In this document: positions 1,388-58,171 of the stretch, one piece after another
Numbering within the stretch: position 1 is the first letter of the stretch
How the letters are laid out: every line of letters starts with the position of its first letter
NCBI GenBank assembly: GCA_015075325.1
Contig: JABTUP010000011.1
Location: 27,072 to 91,071, forward strand
Length of the DNA: 64,000 bases
Direction of reading: 5' to 3'
Source of the DNA: Flavobacteriales bacterium
GTDB lineage: Bacteria; Bacteroidota; Bacteroidia; Flavobacteriales_E; Vicingaceae
Notes under the pieces: generated by a model
Database searches by the model: none
What the model saw: only the letters and a program-made list of their open reading frames with translations
What the model was told of the DNA's origin: nothing
Position numbers and translations under genes: made by a program

Positions 1388-2291
1388 TCAAGTTTTCAGT
1401 CTTCAATCTTCAGTCTTCAGTCTTCGGTCTTCGGTCTTCAGTCTTCCAACTTCAGACTTCTGTCTTCGGTCTTCCAACCTCTGTCTTCTAACTTCTGTCT
1501 TCCTGCTTTTTCTGTTCTCATGCAAAGCTCCAAAAGAGGTAGTAAAAGTTAAGTTAGAACATTATTCAACAAAAGAACTTCTGGAAAAACTAGATTCAAA
1601 CGAAATAAAATTTGAATCGCTTTCTACAAAAGCAGATATAACCGTTTTTGATGAAAAAGAAACTTCTTTTAAAGCACATTTACGTATTAAAAAGGACAGT
1701 GCAATTTGGATTTCGATAACTCCTGCATTAGGAATAGAAATGGCACGCGTACTTATTACAAAAGATACCGTAATGTTTATGGATAGAATTCATAACAAAT
1801 ATTTTGTTGGCGATTTTGCATTTATCAACAAGTCGTTTAATGTAGAATTAGATTACAGTATGCTAGAAGCCCTTTTAGTTGGAAACAGCATTGACTTTGA
1901 AAAAAATGAAAAAGTTAAAACAGCAATCGATCGTCAAAAAGATTATTATTTTATTGGTACCGAACGAAAACGAAAGGTAAAAAAGGATATCAAAAAGGAT
2001 ATTAAAAAAGACAAGGAAGTAATAAAAAATCAAACCCAAATTTTATGGATTTATCCCGAATCGTTTAAAATTGCTGAACTATTGTTAAAAGACCCCGAAA
2101 AAGACCAATCATTACAAGGAGTTTTTTCTGAACACAAATTAGTTAATGAACAATTGTTTCCTTTTAAACTAAATTTTATGGTTGAATCAAAGAAAAACCT
2201 TAAAATTGATGTGGAATACGGAAAAATAACACTTAATAACACTTTAAATTTTTCGTTTAAAATACCCGAAAAGTATGAGCAAATTCAATAA
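1380..2291 (+). CDS. DUF4292-like lipoprotein; N-terminus expanded by a 7-bp repeat array
   Basis: Lipobox-like LFLFSC, then LRIKKDSAIWISITPALGIEMARVLIT typical of DUF4292. ATG overlaps the TPR stop. Confidence 0.75.
   Translation: MSNQVFSLQSSVFSLRSSVFSLPTSDFCLRSSNLCLLTSVFLLFLFSCKAPKEVVKVKLEHYSTKELLEKLDSNEIKFESLSTKADITVFDEKETSFKAHLRIKKDSAIWISITPALGIEMARVLITKDTVMFMDRIHNKYFVGDFAFINKSFNVELDYSMLEALLVGNSIDFEKNEKVKTAIDRQKDYYFIGTERKRKVKKDIKKDIKKDKEVIKNQTQILWIYPESFKIAELLLKDPEKDQSLQGVFSEHKLVNEQLFPFKLNFMVESKKNLKIDVEYGKITLNNTLNFSFKIPEKYEQIQ
1391..1502 (+). repeat. Degenerate 7-bp tandem array (16 units, nnnCTTC)
   Basis: agttttc agtcttc aatcttc agtcttc agtcttc ggtcttc ggtcttc agtcttc caacttc agacttc tgtcttc ggtcttc caacctc tgtcttc taacttc tgtcttc. 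Confidence 0.95.
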
Positions 2292-29055: not shown

Positions 29056-30084
29056 TTATTTTCTAATTTTTCGTGATAACGAGAATCCACCAATGTTTAA
29101 GGCATATTCTTTTACCTCTCCAGAGGCATCTTCAGTGGTTTCAACTTCGGCATTTTTACCTAAAACTTTCGCAACCACATTAGCAGCAACCAATTCCTTT
29201 GATGATGTTTTTACCTCGTTTTCCAATAAGCGTTTTTGTGCTTCTTTTTTCAAGGCTTCCGAAACCGTTAAAAATTCTTCAGATTGTTTTGGCTCTTCTT
29301 CAGCAACAAATGGTTCAATTTCAATGTATTCTTTCTCTTTAAACGGTTCTATTTCTATCATTTCTTTGCTGGTTGCTGGTTGTTGGTTGCTGGTTGCTGG
29401 ATTCTTGTTATTGTTTTCTGAAGAATGAAAACTGTTAACTGAGGATTTTGAACTGTTAACGGTAGGCTTTGAATTGCCAACTGAAGACTGAGAACTGTAA
29501 ATTGTAAACTGTAAACTATCAACCGAAGACTGTGAACTATCAACAAAAGATTGAGAATTATTTTCTATTGGAAACATTCTGGTATCTACCGAAGAGATGT
29601 TATTGTTGTTATCTGTAACAAACGGATTTAAGGTGAAAACAACAAAAAGCACAGCTGCGGCACTCGATATCCACCAATAAATTGGTACTACTTTGGTTTC
29701 TTTGTGTTTTAAGCTATTTTTATCAGCATACACAATTTGTTCGGGAACTAAAATGGTTTTTTGGTAGTTGGCAAAAAGCGAAGCATACAACGCATTTTCT
29801 TTAATAGCTTGTTGCAATTCTGCCGATTCTTTAGCATTATTTAAACCTTCTAATTCGGCAATCATTAATTCTTCGATGGCTGCTTGTTTTATATCTGCCT
29901 TGTGTTCAAAAGTAGCAACTGGTGTTTGAGCAAACAATGTATTTTCATACTCATCTAATTCGGCTTTTAAATCGGGGTTTTGTTCTAAAAACAACATCAA
30001 TTCCGCCACCATTTCTGGTGATAGATTTTGCTCTACATAATCGAGCAAAAAGGCTTCGTAGTTATTTTTATTGATGTAACTCAT
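29056..30084 (-). CDS. Putative membrane-spanning anti-sigma factor
   Basis: N-terminal INKNNYEAFLLDYVEQNLS typical of Bacteroidota ECF partners; single TM (IYWWISSAAAVLFVVF); 4-nt overlap with the ECF sigma stop. Confidence 0.7.
   Translation of the reverse strand: MSYINKNNYEAFLLDYVEQNLSPEMVAELMLFLEQNPDLKAELDEYENTLFAQTPVATFEHKADIKQAAIEELMIAELEGLNNAKESAELQQAIKENALYASLFANYQKTILVPEQIVYADKNSLKHKETKVVPIYWWISSAAAVLFVVFTLNPFVTDNNNNISSVDTRMFPIENNSQSFVDSSQSSVDSLQFTIYSSQSSVGNSKPTVNSSKSSVNSFHSSENNNKNPATSNQQPATSKEMIEIEPFKEKEYIEIEPFVAEEEPKQSEEFLTVSEALKKEAQKRLLENEVKTSSKELVAANVVAKVLGKNAEVETTEDASGEVKEYALNIGGFSLSRKIRK
29367..29562 (-). repeat. Two degenerate 7-bp arrays inside the anti-sigma CDS
   Basis: 5 x tgctggt-like units (29367-29401) and about 20 aactgnn-like units (29423-29562), giving 7-aa repeats (SSQSSVD...) and NPATSNQQPATS. 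Confidence 0.9.
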
Positions 30085-40483: not shown

Positions 40484-40507
40484 TTTAGCACTACTTTATT
40501 TTGAACC

Positions 40508-40768
40508 ATGAACAAACAAGAAATACTAGAAAAAGTTAACCAAGCACTCGAACAAATTCGTCCTTTTTTGAACGACGATGGTGGTGATATTGAGTTGGTT
40601 GAAGTTACTGACGATTTGTATGTAAAGGTAAAATTATTGGGTGCTTGCAAAAGTTGTTCAATGAGTTCGATGACCATAAAAGGTGGAGTTGAAGAATCAA
40701 TAAAAAGAGTAATTCCCGAGTTAAAAGGAGTGATTACCATTGAAGACGAAGCACATACATTCAGTTAG
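40508..40768 (+). CDS. NifU/NfuA-like Fe-S scaffold domain protein
   Basis: IRPFLNDDGGDIEL, GACKSC (CxxC). Confidence 0.93.
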   Translation: MNKQEILEKVNQALEQIRPFLNDDGGDIELVEVTDDLYVKVKLLGACKSCSMSSMTIKGGVEESIKRVIPELKGVITIEDEAHTFS

Positions 40769-40844
40769 AAGTTGGAAGTCCGAAGATGGAAGCTGAATAA
40801 ATCTCAATTCGTAAATCATAAATCCCAATTCGTAATTCATATAT
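40761..40844 (+). repeat. Composite 7-bp tandem array (GAAGnnn units, then CnnAAWT units)
   Basis: tcagtta gaagttg gaagtcc gaagatg gaagctg aataaat ctcaatt cgtaaat cataaat cccaatt cgtaatt catatat. Confidence 0.85.
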
Positions 40845-40845
40845 C

Positions 40846-42987
40846 ATGCAAAAAATCATCTTTCCAACCATGGTTATTTTAACCTTAATTTCTTGTAAAG
40901 AGCAAGAAAAAGCCAACGAAACCGTAAAATTGGTTTATCCCGAAACTAAAATGGGCAATGTTGTTGATGTGTATTTTGGCGATAGTGTTGCCGACCCTTA
41001 CCGATGGTTAGAAGACGACCGTAGCCCAGAAACCGAAGCTTGGGTAAAAGCTCAAAATGTGGTAACGTTCGATTACTTAAATAAAATACCTCAACGCGAA
41101 CAACTCAAAAACCGAATTGCTGAATTGTGGAACTACGAAAAAGTAGGTACTCCATTTTTTGAAAACGGTGTTAAATATTTTTACAAAAACGATGGTTTAC
41201 AAAACCAGTATGTGCTTTACAGCCAAAAAGGAGATGAAGCTCCAAAAGTATTTTTAGATCCCAACCAATTTTCTGCCGATGGCACCACGTCTTTAGGTCA
41301 AGTTAGTTTTTCGAAAAGTGGCAAACTGGTTGCTTATTCTATTTCTGAGGGTGGTAGCGACTGGAGAAAAGTAATTATCATGAGTGCCGAAACCAACCAA
41401 ATATTAGAAGACACCTTAATTGATGTTAAATTTAGTGGTTTATCGTGGAAAGGCGACGAAGGTTTTTACTATTCGAGCTACGAAAAACCAAAAGGCAGTG
41501 AACTTTCGGCAAAAACCGATCAACACAAATTGTATTATCACAAACTTGGAACAGCTCAAAAAACCGATCAACTTATTTTTGGCGGTACTGCCGAACAAAA
41601 ACGTCGTTATGTAGGTGGTTCGGTTACCGAAGATGGAAACTACTTAATTATTTCGGCATCGGAAGCAACATCGGGTAACGAATTGTATATCAAAAATTTA
41701 TCGAACGATAAAAACCCTATTGTAAAAATGGTTGATGGTTTTGAGTCGGACAGCTATGTGATTGAAAATGTAGGTTCAAAATTGTTTTTAGTAACCAACT
41801 TTAATGCTCCAAACAAAAAAATTGTAACGGTTGATGCCGTAAAACCTCAACAAGCCAATTGGATTGATTTTATTCCTGAAACCGAAAACGTGTTGAGCCC
41901 TTCAACTGGTGCTGGTTACTTTTTCGCTCACTACATGAAAGATGCTGTTTCGCAAGTAAAACAGTTTGATTATTCGGGCAAAATGATTCGCGAAATTAAC
42001 TTGCCAGGCTTAGGAACTGCTGATGGTTTTGGTGGAAAAAAAGAAGACACCACCATTTATTTTTCGTTTACCAACTACAACACACCAGTAAGCAATTATG
42101 CATTAAATCCTGTTACGGGAGAAACCAGTGTGTATTGGACTCCAAAAATTGATTTCAAATCCGATAATTTTGAGTCGAAACAAGTGTTTTACACTTCAAA
42201 AGACGGCACTAAAGTGCCTATGATTATAACCTACAAAAAAGGATTAAAATTAGACGGTAAAAACCCAACCATACTTTACGGATACGGTGGTTTCAACATC
42301 AGCATTACTCCTTCGTTTAGTATTGCTAATGCCGTTTGGATGGAAAATGGTGGCGTTTATGTTGTTGCCAACCTACGTGGTGGTGGCGAATATGGCAGAA
42401 AATGGCACGATGCAGGTACTCAACTAAAAAAACAAAACGTGTTCGACGATTTTATTGCTGCCGCTGAATTCTTGATTAAAGAAAACTATACTTCGAGTGA
42501 TTACTTGGCTATTATGGGGCGTTCAAACGGTGGTTTGTTGGTGGGTGCATGTATGACACAACGACCAGAATTGTACAAAGTAGCTTTCCCTGGTGTTGGG
42601 GTTTTAGACATGTTGCGTTACCACACCTTTACTTCTGGTGCAGGTTGGGCTTACGATTACGGAACTTCGGAGCAATCGGAAGAAATGTTTAAGTATTTGA
42701 AAAATTATTCGCCAGTACACAATGTAAAAAAAGGCACCAAATACCCAGCTACTTTGGTAACCACTGGCGACCACGACGACCGTGTGGTACCAGCACACTC
42801 GTTTAAATTTGCTGCCGAATTGCAAGCCAAGAACGATGGCACTAACCCAACATTAATTAGAATTGAAACCAATGCCGGACATGGTGCCGGAACTCCAGTT
42901 TCTAAATTAATTGATGCCAATGCTGATATTTTAAGCTTTGCATTTTATAATATGGGGGTTGAGTTGAAAGCTGCTGGAAAAAAATAA
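40846..42987 (+). CDS. Prolyl oligopeptidase (S9A), lipoprotein
   Basis: Lipobox [19 protein letters not shown] (Ser), DHDDRV (Asp), AGHG (His). Confidence 0.96.
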
Positions 42988-50962: not shown

Positions 50963-51489
50963 TTTTGCCACAAATTGCACTAATTAGCACAGATTGTTGC
51001 ACAAATTTTTATGTTAAAATTACCCTTCTAAAAGTCAAAGAATCCTCACCAAAATTAATTATCAACCCAAGTTTTGATTTCGAACATGCTAAATAATTAA
51101 TGGTTTGTTTAATATCTTCTTCATATATTCCTTCCTGATTGAGCTTTAACTTCTAGAATTAAATCATCATATACAACAAAATCAGCGATATATTTTCTTT
51201 TCAAAAGTCTTCCTTTATAATTTATAGTATAGTGTTTTTCTCTTTCATAATAAATTGAGTTATCTGAAAATTCAATTTCTAACGCATCTTTATAAACAAC
51301 TTCTAAAAATCCTTTTCCAATAATCCTATGCACCTCCATCGCTAAACCTATAATTTTATAGGTTTCGTCTTTCATTAAAAAGTCTTCTTTTTTAGAATAA
51401 AATGCTTCTGGTTCCTCGATAATATACACTATTTTAATCTTTTAATCTGTGAATAGAATCTGCGAAAATTTGTGTAATCAGTGGCAAAA
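50963..51489 (-). mobile_element. Inverted-repeat-bounded element carrying a GxxExxY gene
   Basis: Left arm 50963-50995 and right arm 51457-51489 form a 33-bp imperfect inverted repeat (26/33 by my alignment; terminal ttttgccac perfect). Confidence 0.7.
51009..51429 (-). pseudogene. GxxExxY protein (PD-(D/E)xK-like nuclease), frameshifted
   Basis: GFLEVVY motif and ADFVV...LEVKA. A ttcc duplication at 51128-51135 shifts the frame. Removing it restores GIYEEDIKQTINYLACSKSKLGLIINFGEDSLTFRRVILT*. Confidence 0.9.
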
Positions 51490-51570: not shown

Positions 51571-52977
51571 ATGGAAATAAAAAAAATTAGCAAAATTGAC
51601 TCTAAAAGTCATGTTGCATTTGTTGTAAATACTGAAAAAGAGCTTGATAATACCTTTTTTACTAAAGACGAACTGAGTTATATTAAAACTCAAATAAAAG
51701 ACGAAAATAAACTAATCGTTATCAATCGCTTATCAAAGTTTGTGTTTGTTGTATTTACGGATAAAGGCAACGACTACAAAGCCTATCAAGTAGCTAGAAA
51801 AGCTGCAAGTAAATTGGTTGAAAAAGCCAACGAATTAAAAATTAAAGACTTAATTATTAGTTCAACTACCTCAACAATTGTTGCATTTATCGAAGCTTTG
51901 CTGCTAACCAATTATCAATTTTTAAAATATTATACCGAGAAAAAAGAAAATAGCTTAAAAAATGTTGGTTTAGTTGCTAAAATAACTGCCTCAGAACTTT
52001 CTGAAATTGTTACAGTTGCCACTGCAACCAATATTGCAAAAGACTTGGTAAACGAACCTGTTTCTTACCTAAACGCAACACAATTGGCTAATGAAGCCAA
52101 AAAACTTGGTAAAGAAGCTGGTTTTAAAGTAGAAGTTCTGAGTAAATCAAAAATTGAAGCATTAAAAATGGGTGGTTTGTTGGCTGTAAACAAAGGAAGC
52201 TTAGACCAGCCCACTTTTTCAATATTAGAATGGAAGCCAACGAAAGCTAAAAATAAAAAACCCATTATTTTGGTTGGAAAAGGAGTTGTTTATGACACTG
52301 GCGGATTGAGCTTAAAACCAACACCAAATTCAATGGATATGATGAAGTGTGACATGGCAGGAGCTGCAGCAATTATGGGAGTTTTATATGCTATTGCAAA
52401 AAACAAGTTGCCTTATCATGTAATTGGGTTAATTCCTGCAACCGACAATCGTCCTGGTGGAAATGCTTATGCTCCAGGTGATGTGGTAACCATGCACAAC
52501 AAAAAAACTGTTGAGGTTTTAAATACTGATGCAGAAGGTAGAATGATTTTGGCCGATGCTTTAAGCTATGCTCAAAAATACAAACCCGAATTGGTTTTAG
52601 ATGCCGCAACCCTTACGGGTGCTGCTGCTGCTGCAATAGGGCATTATGGTGTAGTTGCTATGGGAAATGTTGATGAAAAAATAATGAACAAGCTTAAAGA
52701 AAGTGGAAAAAATGTTTACGAACGAATTGTTGAGTTTCCATTTTGGGACGAATATAACGAGCAATTAAAATCAAGTATTGCCGATATGACCAACCTCGGG
52801 AATGGTATGGGAGGAGCAATTACAGCTGGTAAATTTTTAGAAAAATTTACCGACTATCCATACATCCACTTAGATATTGCTGGACCAGCTTTTATAAAAA
52901 CACAAGTAGATTATATTTCTAAAGGAGGAACTGGTGTTGGAGTAAGATTGTTCTACGATTTTATTAAAAATTATTAA
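51571..52977 (+). CDS. pepA: Leucyl aminopeptidase (M17)
   Basis: GKGVVYDTGG, MKCDMAG, NTDAEGR, ATLTGA, HLDIAG; TAnnTTTG at 51529-51536. Confidence 0.95.
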   Translation: MEIKKISKIDSKSHVAFVVNTEKELDNTFFTKDELSYIKTQIKDENKLIVINRLSKFVFVVFTDKGNDYKAYQVARKAASKLVEKANELKIKDLIISSTTSTIVAFIEALLLTNYQFLKYYTEKKENSLKNVGLVAKITASELSEIVTVATATNIAKDLVNEPVSYLNATQLANEAKKLGKEAGFKVEVLSKSKIEALKMGGLLAVNKGSLDQPTFSILEWKPTKAKNKKPIILVGKGVVYDTGGLSLKPTPNSMDMMKCDMAGAAAIMGVLYAIAKNKLPYHVIGLIPATDNRPGGNAYAPGDVVTMHNKKTVEVLNTDAEGRMILADALSYAQKYKPELVLDAATLTGAAAAAIGHYGVVAMGNVDEKIMNKLKESGKNVYERIVEFPFWDEYNEQLKSSIADMTNLGNGMGGAITAGKFLEKFTDYPYIHLDIAGPAFIKTQVDYISKGGTGVGVRLFYDFIKNY

Positions 52978-52978
52978 A

Positions 52979-53034
52979 TAAGACCGAAGTTGGAAGACCG
53001 AAGTCAGAAAACTAGAAACAAGCAACTAGAAAAA
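52979..53034 (+). repeat. Composite 7-bp tandem array between pepA and pdxA
   Basis: taagacc gaagttg gaagacc gaagtca gaaaact agaaaca agcaact agaaaaa. Confidence 0.8.
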
Positions 53035-53035
53035 C

Positions 53036-54088
53036 ATGTTAAAAAGAACTAACGATAAAATACGAATTGGAGTAAGCATTGGCGACTACAACGGCATTGG
53101 TTTAGAGGTTATTATTAAAACCTTTATGGACAATCAAATAACCGATTTGTGTACCCCTATTGTTTATGGTTCAAGTAAACTAGCTAACAACTATCGAAAA
53201 ACCATGGATGTTGGAGATTTTAGTTTTAACAAAATTGCTAATGCTGATGAGGCTCATCCCAAAAAAGCCAATATGGTAAGTTGTTGGAGCGAAGAGGTTG
53301 AACTTTCTATGGGTTTATCAACTGCAAATGCTGGTAAATATGCTTTTTTATCGCTCGAAGCAGCTTGCAAAGATTTGTTTGATGGAAAAATTGATGCAAT
53401 TGTAACTGCTCCAATTAACAAAGATAATATCCAATCCGATCAATTTAAATTTCCTGGTCATACCGAATATTTAACCGAAAAATTTGAAGGCGAATCATTA
53501 ATGCTACTAACCAACGAAAATTTAAAAGTAGGCATTGCAACAAATCACATTCCTGTATCAGCTATTGCAAAAAGCTTAACGGTTGACAAAATTTTTTCAA
53601 AACTCAAAATTTTAAACAAAAGTTTGGTGCAAGATTTTGCCATAAATAGCCCTCGAATTGCGGTTTTAGGATTAAATCCGCATGCTGGCGACAACGGATT
53701 AATTGGAAAAGAAGAGCAAGAAATTATTATTCCGGCTATAAACAGTGCAAAAAGTATTGGATTACAAGTGTTTGGACCTTATCCTGCTGACGGTTTTTTT
53801 GGTTCTGCAAACTATTTAAAGTTTGATGCTATTTTAGCCATGTATCACGACCAAGGACTTATTCCTTTTAAAACATTATCGTTTGGCGAAGGGGTTAATT
53901 TTACTGCAGGGTTAAACATCATTAGAACTTCTCCCGACCATGGCGTTGCATATGATATTGCTGGGAAAAATATAGCTAACGAACAATCGTTTCGTTCTGC
54001 GGTTTATCTTGCCATAGATGTTTTCAGAAACCGACAAATGGATACTGAAATTAATGAGAATGTGTTGAAAGTGAGTAAAGGAAAATAA
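53036..54088 (+). CDS. pdxA: 4-hydroxythreonine-4-phosphate dehydrogenase
   Basis: GDYNGIG, TAPINK, GHTEY, GLNPHAG, MYHDQG, RTSPDHG. Confidence 0.96.
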   Translation: MLKRTNDKIRIGVSIGDYNGIGLEVIIKTFMDNQITDLCTPIVYGSSKLANNYRKTMDVGDFSFNKIANADEAHPKKANMVSCWSEEVELSMGLSTANAGKYAFLSLEAACKDLFDGKIDAIVTAPINKDNIQSDQFKFPGHTEYLTEKFEGESLMLLTNENLKVGIATNHIPVSAIAKSLTVDKIFSKLKILNKSLVQDFAINSPRIAVLGLNPHAGDNGLIGKEEQEIIIPAINSAKSIGLQVFGPYPADGFFGSANYLKFDAILAMYHDQGLIPFKTLSFGEGVNFTAGLNIIRTSPDHGVAYDIAGKNIANEQSFRSAVYLAIDVFRNRQMDTEINENVLKVSKGK

Positions 54089-55004: not shown

Positions 55005-55008
55005 AAAA

Positions 55009-55047
55009 ACCGAAGTTAAATTTCGATAATCGAAATTTAACTTCGGT
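55009..55047. terminator. Perfect 19-bp inverted repeat between the convergent agmatinase remnant and fibre gene
   Basis: accgaagttaaatttcgat-a-atcgaaatttaacttcggt; continues into nnnCTTC heptamers to 55065. Confidence 0.7.
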
Positions 55048-55066
55048 CATCAAACTTCCAACTTCT

Positions 55067-58000
55067 TTACTTTTTCACCATTTTTTTAGTAGCAATTAAT
55101 TCGCCATCAGCAATAAGGCTGTAAGTGTAAACACCAGTTTTAAGGTTGTTGCCATAAACAGTTAATTTACTTTCGCCGCGCTCTTCAATAATCAGTTCTT
55201 TGATGATTCTACCATTTAGATCGTAAAACAACAATTTAGCCTCCATTACATCATTAGGGATGTTGTAATTAATTACTGTATTTTCAGCAAAAGGATTAGG
55301 CATATTTTGATCTAAGACAATGCTGTTTGAATTTATCAATTCAATACTTTTTTGGTTGGTAGCATTATTCAATTCATTGTTTAATGTCCTGTTGCTTTCT
55401 TCACAAATGTTGGCATTTCTAATACAACTCTCAAGATAAGCTAAACGAGTTTCCAAATCATTATTGATGGAATCTTGTATCTGTATAGTGTTTGACATGC
55501 TATCAATAACCAATTGTTGTTCTTGTATACCTTTTGTTAAAATTGGAATAAATGCTTGATAATTTAATGTTTTAAAATCAAAAGAAGAATTTATTTTTAC
55601 ACCATTTGTATCGTATTCATCGGGGTGTATGCCTTTACCTACTAGTTCTGGAAGCACTAATTCGACTTCTTGAGCTACAAAACCATATTGTTTCGAATCA
55701 TTAAAACCAAGCTTACTGTAATTAATTACGTCGTTTAAATATGTCCTTGGTAATAACTGTGAAATAATACTTAATGCATCTGTAATTGAATCAATGTTCT
55801 TTTTAAACATCTGATCTGATACTCCAAATTGACCTGTATATAATAAATCACCAGCAAAATATCCAGCAAAATGAGGTCCTAAAGTACTACTTGTGTTTGG
55901 GGCTTGGGCGAAAACACCATAATTTATACCAGAAGAACCATTAGCTAAAAAACGACCACCAAAATTTTGAGTAAGAGAACCCGTAGCACTACCATAAACA
56001 CCTACATTTTCTCCAGTATTACCTCCAGATGTTGTTGCACTTCCTGTAACGCCCCAACCAACCGAAGCACCTGGAGCTATTGCACTCCCGTTAACACCGA
56101 CATTTCTAACGGTTGCCATACCACCGCCACTATTTATTCCATAACTGTCTTGACCACCCCATCCACTGGTATGAATACCAGTATTTCTAATTGTTGAATT
56201 TGTGGCAAGCACGTCAATAGACCGAGAATATGGTGAGTTTGCATCTGTATAAATTTGTGCACCAACACTATAATTCGCTGCTTGTTCAGAATTATGTACA
56301 TAAATACCTCTTGACATAGACATTGTTGTAGTTCCTGTTTTATCAACTTGTAATTTAGCTATTGGTGTACAAGTTGTACCTATTCCAATATTGTTTCCAG
56401 TAGTTCCTTGTCCGCTAAAAATTAAATTAAAATCATTCAAAGGTATTTCTCTGTCTGACAATAAATTAGCTGTACTAGATGCTGAGCCACATGCTTGTCC
56501 CAACTGTATATTGTTGGCAGGATTAATACTCAATCCATTATCAGCAGTAACGGTTCCTGTACCTCCCACTGCATCAACCAACACCACATCACCATCTTGG
56601 TCAACGGTTAATACTCTTGTATTATCCACTCCGTTTGTTCCATTAGCAAGAGTTGGTGAAGCCGAAGTTAATTGCGTCAAACGCAACCCGCTCGCATTAG
56701 TATTTCCATATTTGGTGCTTTTCATGTTTGCACTAATCTCTACCGTGTTTCCTGTATTACAGAAAGCTGTTGAAGCAGGTTGACCACCAAAACCAACACC
56801 ACCTGTTTCGGTATCTAAAGAACCTATCCAAAAGTTAAAATCTCTATTGGCAATTACCCTATCCTCTGTAAATTGTGTTGCCAATATCCCAGTAGTATTA
56901 ACATTGCCATTAACATTAAGACATGGAACGCCTAATTGAACCACTCCTGCTGCATTAACAAAGATACCATTATCAGCAGTTACATTACCTCCCAAATTGC
57001 TACCATCAATCCAATGCACTCGGTTGTGGTCGTCAGGGTCGATAGCCAAAATTTGAGTTAGTGTATTGTCCTGTGTTACAGTTCTAATTCGTAAATCGCC
57101 ATCAATATCTAGTTTGGCATTTATAGGATTAGCAACATTAAAAGCCGTTGTCCAGTTACCTATCCCCATCATTCCATGGTTAGTTAAAGGTAAAGTTGAA
57201 GCTGATGCAGGTATAATTCTAGCATCTTCAATAGCACCAGTATAAAAAATCATTGGCAAGTTTTCTTGTTGGTTGATGTGAGCTGTTCCAGTAGTAGTTA
57301 TACCAATTCTTAAACCATCAGTTACGGTTTGTCCTGTGCCTGTTTGGTTAGTCATTTGAAGCCAAACTGGACTTGTTTGATAAAGACTCATGTGCAAGAG
57401 TGATTGAGGGCGGACATAAAGAGGGTCATTTGCACCAAAAGTATTACCTAAACCGAATTCGCCTGTGGCTGTAAATCTTGCAATATGTCTTCCATCCAAA
57501 TCATGAGTGTTAGTTAAATTAGGCACAATAGTAGTAAACCCATTTCCAGCAGTAGTAAATCTAAAAACAAAATCATCTGGTCCTTGACCAGCTGCATTAT
57601 CACTCCATGTTACACCCATTTCTGATAAATCTTGACCAGGAGCTAACGACCTGATGCCAACATACATTAAATCATTATTTCCAGTAAGTGTAATACCTGT
57701 TTGCATCCAAGGACGATAACCTGATTCTTGAACAAATCCACCCCCTAGGCTATTTTGAACCCCACTTAGATGAAGCATTGAGAAAGCTCCTTTTGAATTA
57801 AACAAAGAAGGATTAAAGTCTTGTGTCATCCAATCTTGTCCAAGAAGTAAATAACCACTTGTATTAACTCCTTCTGCCGCACCATAACCTGTTATACTGT
57901 ATTGTGTTGCGGCATTAAAATCACCATTTAACTTCATTCGCCTTTGCGAATTGGTATAAGTATAAATTGGAGAATTCCACATCGTGCCGAAAATGTTGTT

Positions 58001-58171
58001 TGTGGCTGCTGGGTTTAATGTGCCATTCCCACCTCTAAACCAAGCATATTGCCCTTTTTGAACAGCAGGTAATCCTGTTGTTGGATCGGCAGCAGGGTTT
58101 GGTGTAGGAGCTTGCTGTGCAAACCCAACACTACTTAGCAGCACACATGCTGCAATTGTTATTTTTTTCAT
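55067..58171 (-). CDS. Secreted tail-fibre-like protein with peptidase S74 chaperone domain and T9SS type A C-terminal domain
   Basis: Signal peptide; Gly/Thr/Asn-rich body with VTADNG repeats; SDQMFKKNI...YGFVAQEVE...LNYQAFIPILTKGIQE (S74); coiled coil; QNMPNPF...GVYTYSL...KKMVK. Confidence 0.88.
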   Translation of the reverse strand: MKKITIAACVLLSSVGFAQQAPTPNPAADPTTGLPAVQKGQYAWFRGGNGTLNPAATNNIFGTMWNSPIYTYTNSQRRMKLNGDFNAATQYSITGYGAAEGVNTSGYLLLGQDWMTQDFNPSLFNSKGAFSMLHLSGVQNSLGGGFVQESGYRPWMQTGITLTGNNDLMYVGIRSLAPGQDLSEMGVTWSDNAAGQGPDDFVFRFTTAGNGFTTIVPNLTNTHDLDGRHIARFTATGEFGLGNTFGANDPLYVRPQSLLHMSLYQTSPVWLQMTNQTGTGQTVTDGLRIGITTTGTAHINQQENLPMIFYTGAIEDARIIPASASTLPLTNHGMMGIGNWTTAFNVANPINAKLDIDGDLRIRTVTQDNTLTQILAIDPDDHNRVHWIDGSNLGGNVTADNGIFVNAAGVVQLGVPCLNVNGNVNTTGILATQFTEDRVIANRDFNFWIGSLDTETGGVGFGGQPASTAFCNTGNTVEISANMKSTKYGNTNASGLRLTQLTSASPTLANGTNGVDNTRVLTVDQDGDVVLVDAVGGTGTVTADNGLSINPANNIQLGQACGSASSTANLLSDREIPLNDFNLIFSGQGTTGNNIGIGTTCTPIAKLQVDKTGTTTMSMSRGIYVHNSEQAANYSVGAQIYTDANSPYSRSIDVLATNSTIRNTGIHTSGWGGQDSYGINSGGGMATVRNVGVNGSAIAPGASVGWGVTGSATTSGGNTGENVGVYGSATGSLTQNFGGRFLANGSSGINYGVFAQAPNTSSTLGPHFAGYFAGDLLYTGQFGVSDQMFKKNIDSITDALSIISQLLPRTYLNDVINYSKLGFNDSKQYGFVAQEVELVLPELVGKGIHPDEYDTNGVKINSSFDFKTLNYQAFIPILTKGIQEQQLVIDSMSNTIQIQDSINNDLETRLAYLESCIRNANICEESNRTLNNELNNATNQKSIELINSNSIVLDQNMPNPFAENTVINYNIPNDVMEAKLLFYDLNGRIIKELIIEERGESKLTVYGNNLKTGVYTYSLIADGELIATKKMVKK

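Follow-up and report, generated by a model that had tools for sequence, protein, structure and literature searches.

The heptamer array described here fills the spacer between a gene for a NifU-like protein and a prolyl oligopeptidase (POP) gene in a 64,000-nucleotide stretch (the window, contig C3:27072-91071) of a Vicingus genome of 3.3 Mb and 32.8% GC, whose closest public relatives are Vicingus metagenome-assembled genomes (Flavobacteriales, Bacteroidota; congeners hereafter). Repeats of this kind are known in bacteria but have found no explanation. On balance we think it probable that it is an ordinary member of a genome-wide class of heptanucleotide tandem arrays, of the type of the short tandemly repeated repetitive sequences (STRR), which are heptanucleotide tandem repeats of cyanobacteria, and of the heptameric long simple sequence repeats (LSSR), and that it grew in place, turns over fast and is filtered by strand on the transcript. 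The locus shows the characters of that type, namely head-to-tail units beyond chance, period-7 excess, intergenic bias and a rule of orientation; a unit number that varies between species is seen at a second junction of the window, pepA-pdxA (two to five GAAG units in five species), the nifU-POP array having no homologous array in the congeners. The features of the locus are as follows.

40508..40768, forward strand: upstream gene, 86 aa, NifU-like domain (PF01106, 6.3e-26), with its stop and last codons inside the first array units.
40761..40795, forward strand: sub-array A, five heptamers, G-rich and C-poor (G12/C4), including the nifU stop.
40796..40844, forward strand: sub-array B, seven heptamers with consensus C-n-T-A-A-W-T, about 2.3 copies of a 21-nt repeat, A/T-rich (G2/C9), ending 1 nt 5' of the POP start.
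40846..42987, forward strand: downstream gene, a 713-aa prolyl oligopeptidase (S9A; PF02897, Peptidase_S9_N, 5e-127; PF00326, S9, 2e-66).

Positions 40761-40844 (84 bases) consist of 12 heptamers in a single phase, five of a G-rich GAAGnnn type followed by seven of a G-poor CnTAAnT type (TCAGTTA GAAGTTG GAAGTCC GAAGATG GAAGCTG, then AATAAAT CTCAATT CGTAAAT CATAAAT CCCAATT CGTAATT CATATAT). The composite extends, just as an earlier note on this DNA had described, from the final codons of the NifU-domain gene, whose stop codon (TAG, 40766-40768) lies within units 1 and 2, to 1 nt upstream of the POP start codon, base 40845 being a C and the ATG beginning at 40846. Identity at a lag of 7 nt amounts to 46 of 77 positions (60%), compared with a mean of 21.3 (standard deviation 3.8) in shuffled sequence, a value reached by none of 20,000 shuffles, and additional identity peaks occur at lags 14 and 21. 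Each part is periodic by itself (19/28 versus 7.3 in shuffles for sub-array A, 26/42 versus 13.7 for sub-array B). Tandem Repeats Finder (TRF) reports period 7 at 40763-40792 and period 21 at 40797-40845 (89% matches, score 77), so that sub-array B is in fact a 21-nt higher-order repeat of three heptamers. The common phase of the two sub-arrays has a one-in-seven probability by chance and is hence no evidence on its own. The C-terminal tail of the NifU-like protein is different in each congener.

The array does not fold into a hairpin: its minimum free energy (MFE) of -10.1 kcal/mol corresponds to z=+0.54 (143 of 200 shuffles were as good), and a second computation gave z=+0.72, which together rule out pairing of sub-array A with sub-array B. 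A search of the locus against Rfam placed no family on the array, the sole match being a sub-threshold chance one at 40493-40525, outside it. At E<0.05 sub-array B matches nowhere else in the genome, and the best paralogue of sub-array A is C1:226392-226426 (35 nt at 91%), other GAAG arrays matching it as a unit family only. The 77-nt spacer contains no open reading frame (ORF) for a four-helix-bundle (4HB) protein; the 64-kb window has no match to the 4HB family TIGR02436, the 12 genome copies lying on other contigs. Neither terminal inverted repeats nor target-site duplications were seen at the nifU-POP or pepA-pdxA junctions.

Arrays of this kind are a genome-wide population. The genome was scanned for lag-k segments scored +1 per match and -1 per mismatch, with a score of at least 13 and shorter periods left out, and genes were taken as ORFs of 80 aa or more, chosen heuristically by greedy exclusion of overlaps, so that "intergenic" takes in some short genes. 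The period-7 scan, which the earlier note had proposed as a check, returned 183 segments compared with 14 in locally shuffled sequence; the same detector returned 23, 24, 9 and 20 segments at lags 5, 8, 10 and 11, respectively, and TRF likewise found periods 7, 14 and 21 over-represented genome-wide. The arrays are concentrated between genes, 126 of the 183 (69%) falling outside the ORFs of 80 aa or more, in territory that makes up 10.4% of the genome. Co-oriented gene pairs hold 79% of the intergenic arrays, but such pairs make up 73.5% of all spacers, and the arrays therefore have no added preference for them. Over a third of the arrays in co-oriented spacers (36/99) fill the spacer from at most 15 nt after the stop to at most 15 nt before the start. 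Many unit families are represented (GAAGnnn, nnAACTG, TTAGGCG, CTAATCA, AATTTCT, GGTGATG, CCAGAAA and others), and along an array the units often intergrade. As a class, arrays are not extra hairpin-prone spacers, a candidate explanation that was rejected when z fell below -2 in 35% of array spacers and in 40% of array-free spacers. Some array spacers of 90-140 nt (C16:24675-24816, C45:115922-116026 and C1:35000-35092) have a predicted MFE of 0.0 kcal/mol and are less structured than any shuffle, which suggests selection for unstructured RNA.

When skew is oriented to the mRNA, the population obeys a rule of strand polarity. Arrays abutting only a stop codon have G>C in 16 of 22 cases, those abutting only a start codon have C>G in 28 of 30, and arrays that span the spacer pass from a skew of +0.27 in the first half to -0.23 in the second (p=2e-5), whereas the skew of array-free spacers is nearly nil. 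The nifU-POP locus follows the rule, with G12/C4 in sub-array A and G2/C9 in sub-array B. The G-rich part of the rule, for arrays after a stop, holds by our reading in convergent spacers also (about 9 of 12), and no cassette was seen there.

The remaining arrays of the window conform to the same pattern. Allowing at most one mismatch, GAAGNNNGAAGNNNGAAG matches the window 22 times, against 0.14 expected, at four loci (1394-1509, reverse strand; 40768-40792; 52979-53010; 55041-55065, reverse strand), which bears out the earlier observation that GAAGnnn units recur in both orientations. A fifth period-7 locus of the window is situated within a 342-aa ORF. The loci other than nifU-POP are as follows.

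52979..53035, forward strand: array between pepA (M17) and pdxA, units AAGACC GAAGTTG GAAGACC GAAGTCA, then G-poor AAACTAG AAACAAG CAACTAG AAAAAC, directly 5' of the ATG at 53036.
1391..1502, forward strand: 16 nnnCTTC heptamers (the reverse complement of GAAG), in frame at the 5' end (signal-peptide region) of ORF 1380-2291.
55005..55066, reverse strand: array directly 3' of the stop of a 1034-aa gene (55067-58171), with GAAGTTG GAAGTTT GATGACC GAAGT units.
29366..29561, reverse strand: intragenic arrays of period 7/21 inside the 342-aa ORF 29056-30084, translated as Ser-rich 7-aa repeats.

Polarity is kept at these places as well: 52979-53035 runs from G-rich to G-poor, 1391-1502 has a C-rich sense strand adjoining the start codon at the 5' end of its gene, and in 55005-55066, which follows a stop, the sense strand is the G-rich one. 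There the GAAG units lead into a perfect 17-bp hairpin and T-run that looks like a terminator. Heptamer arrays are tolerated within genes too, where they are read as 7-aa repeats: one lies in the part of ORF 1380-2291 that specifies the signal peptide, the other in a linker of ORF 29056-30084 that is rich in Ser.

Heptamer arrays also form the arms of 4HB gene cassettes. Of the 12 TIGR02436 matches in the genome, 11 are cassette-type genes in spacers between housekeeping genes, flanked by heptamer arrays that are mutually reverse-complementary upstream and downstream. That such genes often have heptamer flanks had been stated in the earlier note, and it is borne out here: an array lies in the flank of 6 of the 11 cassette-type genes, compared with 201 of 2692 other genes (7.5%), a 7-fold enrichment (Fisher p=6e-5), and the flanks are inverted arrays. 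About 8 of the 183 arrays adjoin a 4HB gene. Across 12 Vicingus genomes we collected 64 4HB cassette genes, in which orthologues are counted and which are hence not independent; the complementarity of the arms exceeded the 95th percentile of controls in 45 of them. The cassettes sit between the stop and start codons of their neighbors, the left arm being rich in G and the right arm in C, and the nifU-POP locus has the form of such arms, with G-rich and then C-rich heptamers placed between the stop codon of one gene and the start codon of the next in the same orientation. A literature search returned no report of a link between TIGR02436/PF05635 genes and heptamer arrays outside the intervening sequences (IVS) of rRNA genes.

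Several further observations concern the cassettes and comparable fillers. The one non-cassette TIGR02436 gene, C8:45956-46273 (167 aa; about 165-178 aa and about 58-62 bits across the genomes), occupies the same place in all 12 genomes, in one copy each and without heptamer arms; in contrast to the cassette copies, it is inherited vertically. In L050 (G002:C124:12225-12548) and L065 (G010:C19:117472-117795) the 4HB ORF has no stop codon, and its reading frame stays open across the right arm and on into the gene that follows, for totals of 347 and 359 aa; the same junction is a 1-nt spacer in our genome (C62:43449/43451). A link to diversity-generating retroelements was considered and rejected: none of the three reverse transcriptase genes lies beside a 4HB gene, the nearest pairs being 30 kb (contig C60) and about 32 kb (C8) apart. 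Genes of another family, GxxExxY (TIGR04256), are present in seven copies between inverted repeat arms whose units are of about 10 nt (CACAGAT..., CACAAAG...) and not heptamers. Their positions are given in one line.

C31:12155, C9:22590, C8:20228, C15:45313, C12:83145, C7:53045 and window 51018-51366: GxxExxY genes with inverted repeat arrays on both sides.

The period of the arms thus seems to follow the family of the cargo gene, with heptamers for 4HB and about 10 nt for GxxExxY. A third dispersed junction filler consists of G/C-rich hairpins, CCTCCCCAACCCCTCC-GAA-GGAGGGG, found at C8:24579-24711, C1:82403-82549, C16:11620-11710 and C6:65927-66111; hairpins of the CCTCCCCAACCCCTCC type often lie at junctions that carry a 4HB cassette in congeners.

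Comparison of the same junctions among the congeners, which are mutually related so that counts across them are not independent, indicates how fast the arrays turn over. Of 14 arrays compared with the sister species G001, whose flanking sequence is 85-93% identical to ours, a single one is conserved; the others are absent or swapped for another unit family, sometimes at equal length. At one junction, C12:31861-31942 here and C6:128065-128150 in G001, the two species have heptamer hairpins of 102 and 106 nt built from unrelated unit families (TTAGGCG/CGCCTAA here, GAAGACC/CTTCTGA in G001), the arms being complementary within each species. The nifU-POP synteny is kept in eight congeners, and the heptamer array was found in none of those compared, whose spacers are listed below with our own.

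G007: 14 nt, short.
G011: 23 nt, short.
G001 (sister species): 36 nt, 13-nt direct repeat.
G002: 68 nt, degenerate form of the G009 element.
G004: 70 nt, other filler.
This genome: 77 nt, heptamer array.
G009: 84 nt, inverted period-8 arrays (z=-2.9).
G003 (L014:1761-1902): 142 nt, gene-less hairpin (-37.4 kcal/mol, z=-4.8).

The arms of the G003 hairpin are tandem CAAAG-type units, as around the GxxExxY gene at C9:22590, so the nifU-POP junction of this congener is occupied by "empty arms" of another type.

The pepA-pdxA junction, compared in ten genomes, gives the fuller picture. A homologous GAAG array of two to five units, followed by differing G-poor arrays, is found here and in G004, G003, G002 and G009; the spacer is a clean 2-3 nt in the sister species G001, in G011 and in G007, and at most a few nt in G006, where it is unclear which codon is the start. 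In G010 a 4HB cassette occupies the junction, and its arms show no sequence relationship to the array present there in other species. It follows that arrays persist without a gene, vary in unit number and can be wholly absent. When 60 congener cassettes were mapped onto our genome, about 15 junctions proved to be empty here but occupied in one or more relatives. About five of these are clean, with 1-33 nt (C62:43449, C62:41134, C62:10928, C15:49621 and C1:72012), so arrays are not a required target, and four hold other fillers (CCCCTCC...GGAGGGG hairpins or other inverted repeats). Five or six of the 15, judged by eye, have heptamer arrays, some of them short or degenerate; the two strong ones, window 52977-53036 and C1:226377-226464, both correspond to a cassette in G010. 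With the strict detector the figure is 2 of 15 against a background of about 5%, which is not significant. At C4:41822 a gene-less array here corresponds to a 4HB cassette in G008 and G011, and the spacer at C56:93057-93153 is a weak hairpin (z=-1.6) whose left half can be aligned with the left-hand arms of the cassettes in G002, G004 and G011; it is the best candidate for a true cassette relic.

On the favored reading, most likely a 7-nt duplication within a short spacer would start an array, strand slippage or unequal exchange would then expand and contract it by whole units, and point mutations that spread or decay would produce graded, degenerate units. Selection at the level of the transcript would filter the strand, leaving G-containing, C-poor units directly after the stop and G-poor, A/C/T-rich, unstructured units directly before the start. 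The nifU-POP array itself is probably merely tolerated, as co-transcribed spacer and leader for the POP gene. Since the arms of the 4HB cassettes are arrays of the same kind at the same kind of junction, arrays and cassettes are related; nothing in the sequences compared indicates that a cassette was ever present at nifU-POP.

Several findings weigh against growth in place as the favored reading has it. Simple slippage explains neither the constancy of GAAG beside three variable positions nor the preference for a period of 7, and constraints on translation predict only a G-poor leader and so leave the G-richness after the stop unexplained. Arrays at pepA-pdxA are all-or-none, with clean empty sites of 2-3 nt, a pattern of presence and absence more suggestive of insertion and excision than of gradual growth. 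The cassette arms have the polarity of the arrays (left G>C in 50 of 64, right C>G in 44 of 62), and the unit families of the locus recur as arms of congener 4HB cassettes, GAAGnnn on the left in G002, G004 and G011 and GTAATTC/GTAAATC on the right in G001, G002, G003 and G007. Finally, G006, the sole cassette-free congener, has arrays at background level only. In this comparison of five genomes, for which the four congeners were sampled at 400 kb, our genome has 22 arrays per 400 kb, G010 17, G001 15, G004 7 and G006 4 (the background level), and the corresponding numbers of cassettes are about 11, about 11, about 4, about 11 and 0. The relation of array density to cassette number is imperfect, G004 having about 3-fold fewer arrays with equal cassettes.

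These findings bear directly on the suggestion of the earlier note that the arrays are scars or targets of the cassettes. For nifU-POP this would mean that sub-arrays A and B are the G-rich left and C-rich right arms of an IVS-like 4HB hairpin cassette, left behind after loss of the gene or by two successive events, their complementarity having since drifted away. We regard this as a possible but rather doubtful origin. It is the only explanation that predicts both G-rich arrays after stop codons and the common unit families, it accords with the 7-fold enrichment of arrays at 4HB genes, with the complementary, G-then-C arms in 45 of the 64 genus cassettes and with the occurrence of both unit families of the locus on the matching side of congener cassettes, and tandem heptamers likewise precede the 4HB ORF of the Coxiella 23S rRNA IVS (PMC4990558). 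Gene-less array junctions are, moreover, filled in relatives (52977-53036, C1:226377, C56:93057-93153 and C4:41822), and the check proposed in the note, for a gene inserted at orthologous junctions, is positive for the arrays at 52986 and C1:226377-226464, where G010 has a 4HB cassette. It is negative at nifU-POP, where none of eight congeners has a gene or cassette between the two genes, and sub-arrays A and B are not complementary. At the 52986 junction the G010 arms bear no relation to the array, which five species keep without a gene. Intergenic arrays (at least 126) outnumber cassettes (11) by more than 10 to 1, G004 departs from any simple dependence on cassette number, the strict detector finds no significant excess at own-empty junctions, and G-rich arrays follow the stop in convergent spacers too, where no cassette was seen. 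Of the scar-or-target proposal, then, the enrichment at 4HB genes and the shared unit families and polarity stand; the unrelated G010 arms, the gene-less arrays of five species, the clean empty sites, the few arrays near 4HB genes and the lack of a hairpin speak against it.

A broader form of the idea joins the two phenomena into one system, in which PF05635/TIGR02436 cassettes or their protein would give rise to 7-nt arrays at operon junctions or multiply them there, and many of the arrays that now stand alone, that at nifU-POP included, would be relics. It is hinted at by the polarity common to arms and arrays, by the arm period that follows the cargo family and by the background number of arrays in the cassette-free congener, and we put it forward tentatively, as something that may well prove wrong.

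It is unlikely that the array is instead a functional RNA element, acting as cis sites on a polycistronic mRNA, for example sites in a 7-nt register for S1 or a Csp-like protein, or as an unstructured leader that sets downstream translation, with a unit number that could tune expression. Such a role would fit the strong rule of orientation relative to stop and start codons, the arrays that end a few nt from an ATG, and the many array spacers with MFE near 0 over 90-140 nt, less structured than their shuffles. Translational regulation has been proposed for TAACTGA repeats (PMC4679880), and heptanucleotide repeats in the 5' region control expression of Haemophilus hmw1A (PMC8262952, PMC12721329). 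However, our array is missing from the nifU-POP junction in 7 of 8 congeners, the sister species having a spacer of 36 nt, and is therefore dispensable for nifU and POP; the many unrelated unit families speak against one binding protein, and the functions of the downstream genes show no pattern.

Transposition of a fixed sequence, by a copy-and-paste element resembling miniature inverted-repeat transposable elements (MITE) or repetitive extragenic palindromes (REP), would account for the many junctions occupied in both orientations and for presence and absence with clean empty sites, but is largely refuted and highly improbable, as sub-array B occurs just once in the genome, arrays match one another over short stretches of a unit family and not as full-length copies, and neither terminal inverted repeats nor target-site duplications were seen. 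Chance periodicity or an assembly artefact, for which one could cite the AT-rich genome and the many chance rows of a low-threshold TRF list, is refuted by the shuffles of the locus and of the genome and by homologous arrays in independent assemblies of other species.

Why bacteria carry 7-nt repeats, and what role these have in transcribed spacers, has been a question since the first descriptions of STRR and LSSR. The genus provides an unusually clean natural experiment on it, in which the same conserved junctions may be clean or may contain an array only, a hairpin with no gene or a cassette with its gene, four states in all, together with changes of unit number between species and a strict strand rule that matches one published for unrelated phyla. 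If the link to the cassettes is causal, it would offer a testable function for the 4HB family, and if arrays and cassettes are one system, a protein family that includes the ORF of the 23S rRNA IVS would be tied to the unexplained excess of 7-nt repeats in bacteria. If the link is not causal, the arrays are fast-evolving neutral filler, which annotators should not take for regulatory sites or CRISPR-like features.

Among known systems, REP sequences and their paired form (REPIN) and MITE-like elements are the least similar, the locus having none of their near-identical full-length copies, terminal inverted repeats or target duplications. The phase-variation heptanucleotide repeats upstream of Haemophilus influenzae hmw1A, which tune expression (PMC8262952, PMC12721329), are likewise 7-nt simple sequence repeats of changeable unit number in an untranslated region; theirs, however, lie in the promoter or 5' untranslated region and have a shown effect on expression. 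In the 23S rRNA IVS of Coxiella burnetii (S23p, PF05635), the 4HB ORF lies inside a stem of 28 bp and is preceded by three tandem GACAGAT heptamers (Warrier et al. 2016, PMC4990558). The 4HB cassettes of the genus share this layout, a 4HB gene inside complementary heptamer arms, but the nifU-POP locus has neither ORF nor stem and lies in an mRNA spacer, not in rRNA.

Closer to the array itself are the TAACTGA direct repeats found just 5' of start codons in Beggiatoaceae, Cyanobacteria and five Bacteroidetes (MacGregor 2015, PMC4679880), a source that also mentions other heptamer repeats in intergenic regions of G. forsetii and A. sublithincola. Like these, the arrays of our genome are intergenic heptamers in "forward" orientation that end a few nt from the start codon, and nnAACTG units are common among them; unlike them, they have no single dominant heptamer and include an additional G-rich class directly after the stop, and the nifU-POP locus has neither TAACTGA nor a hairpin. 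A congener, G010, has a perfect (TAACTGA)x6 at C1:263044-263090 (L265), the exact heptamer of PMC4679880. In Xanthomonas and Nostoc, according to Rehm et al. (2015, PMC4692102), GGGNATC heptamers lie in sense, G-rich form within 50 bp after a stop or in antisense within 50 bp upstream of an ORF, with a preference for spacers between aligned ORFs. To that extent the rule of placement equals that of the Vicingus arrays, whereas the G-tracts, G-quadruplexes and four-unit preference described there are theirs; GAAGnnn lacks a G-tract, and no quadruplex is therefore expected at nifU-POP. The nearest counterparts are STRR and the heptameric LSSR (Mrazek et al. 2007, as summarised in PMC4679880), which, as far as that summary goes, share with the Vicingus arrays head-to-tail 7-nt units, a period-7 excess, intergenic bias, a unit number that varies between relatives and no known function. 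From these, on the same summary, Vicingus, a low-GC member of the Bacteroidota, differs in having dozens of unit families, mostly degenerate and often intergrading within one array.

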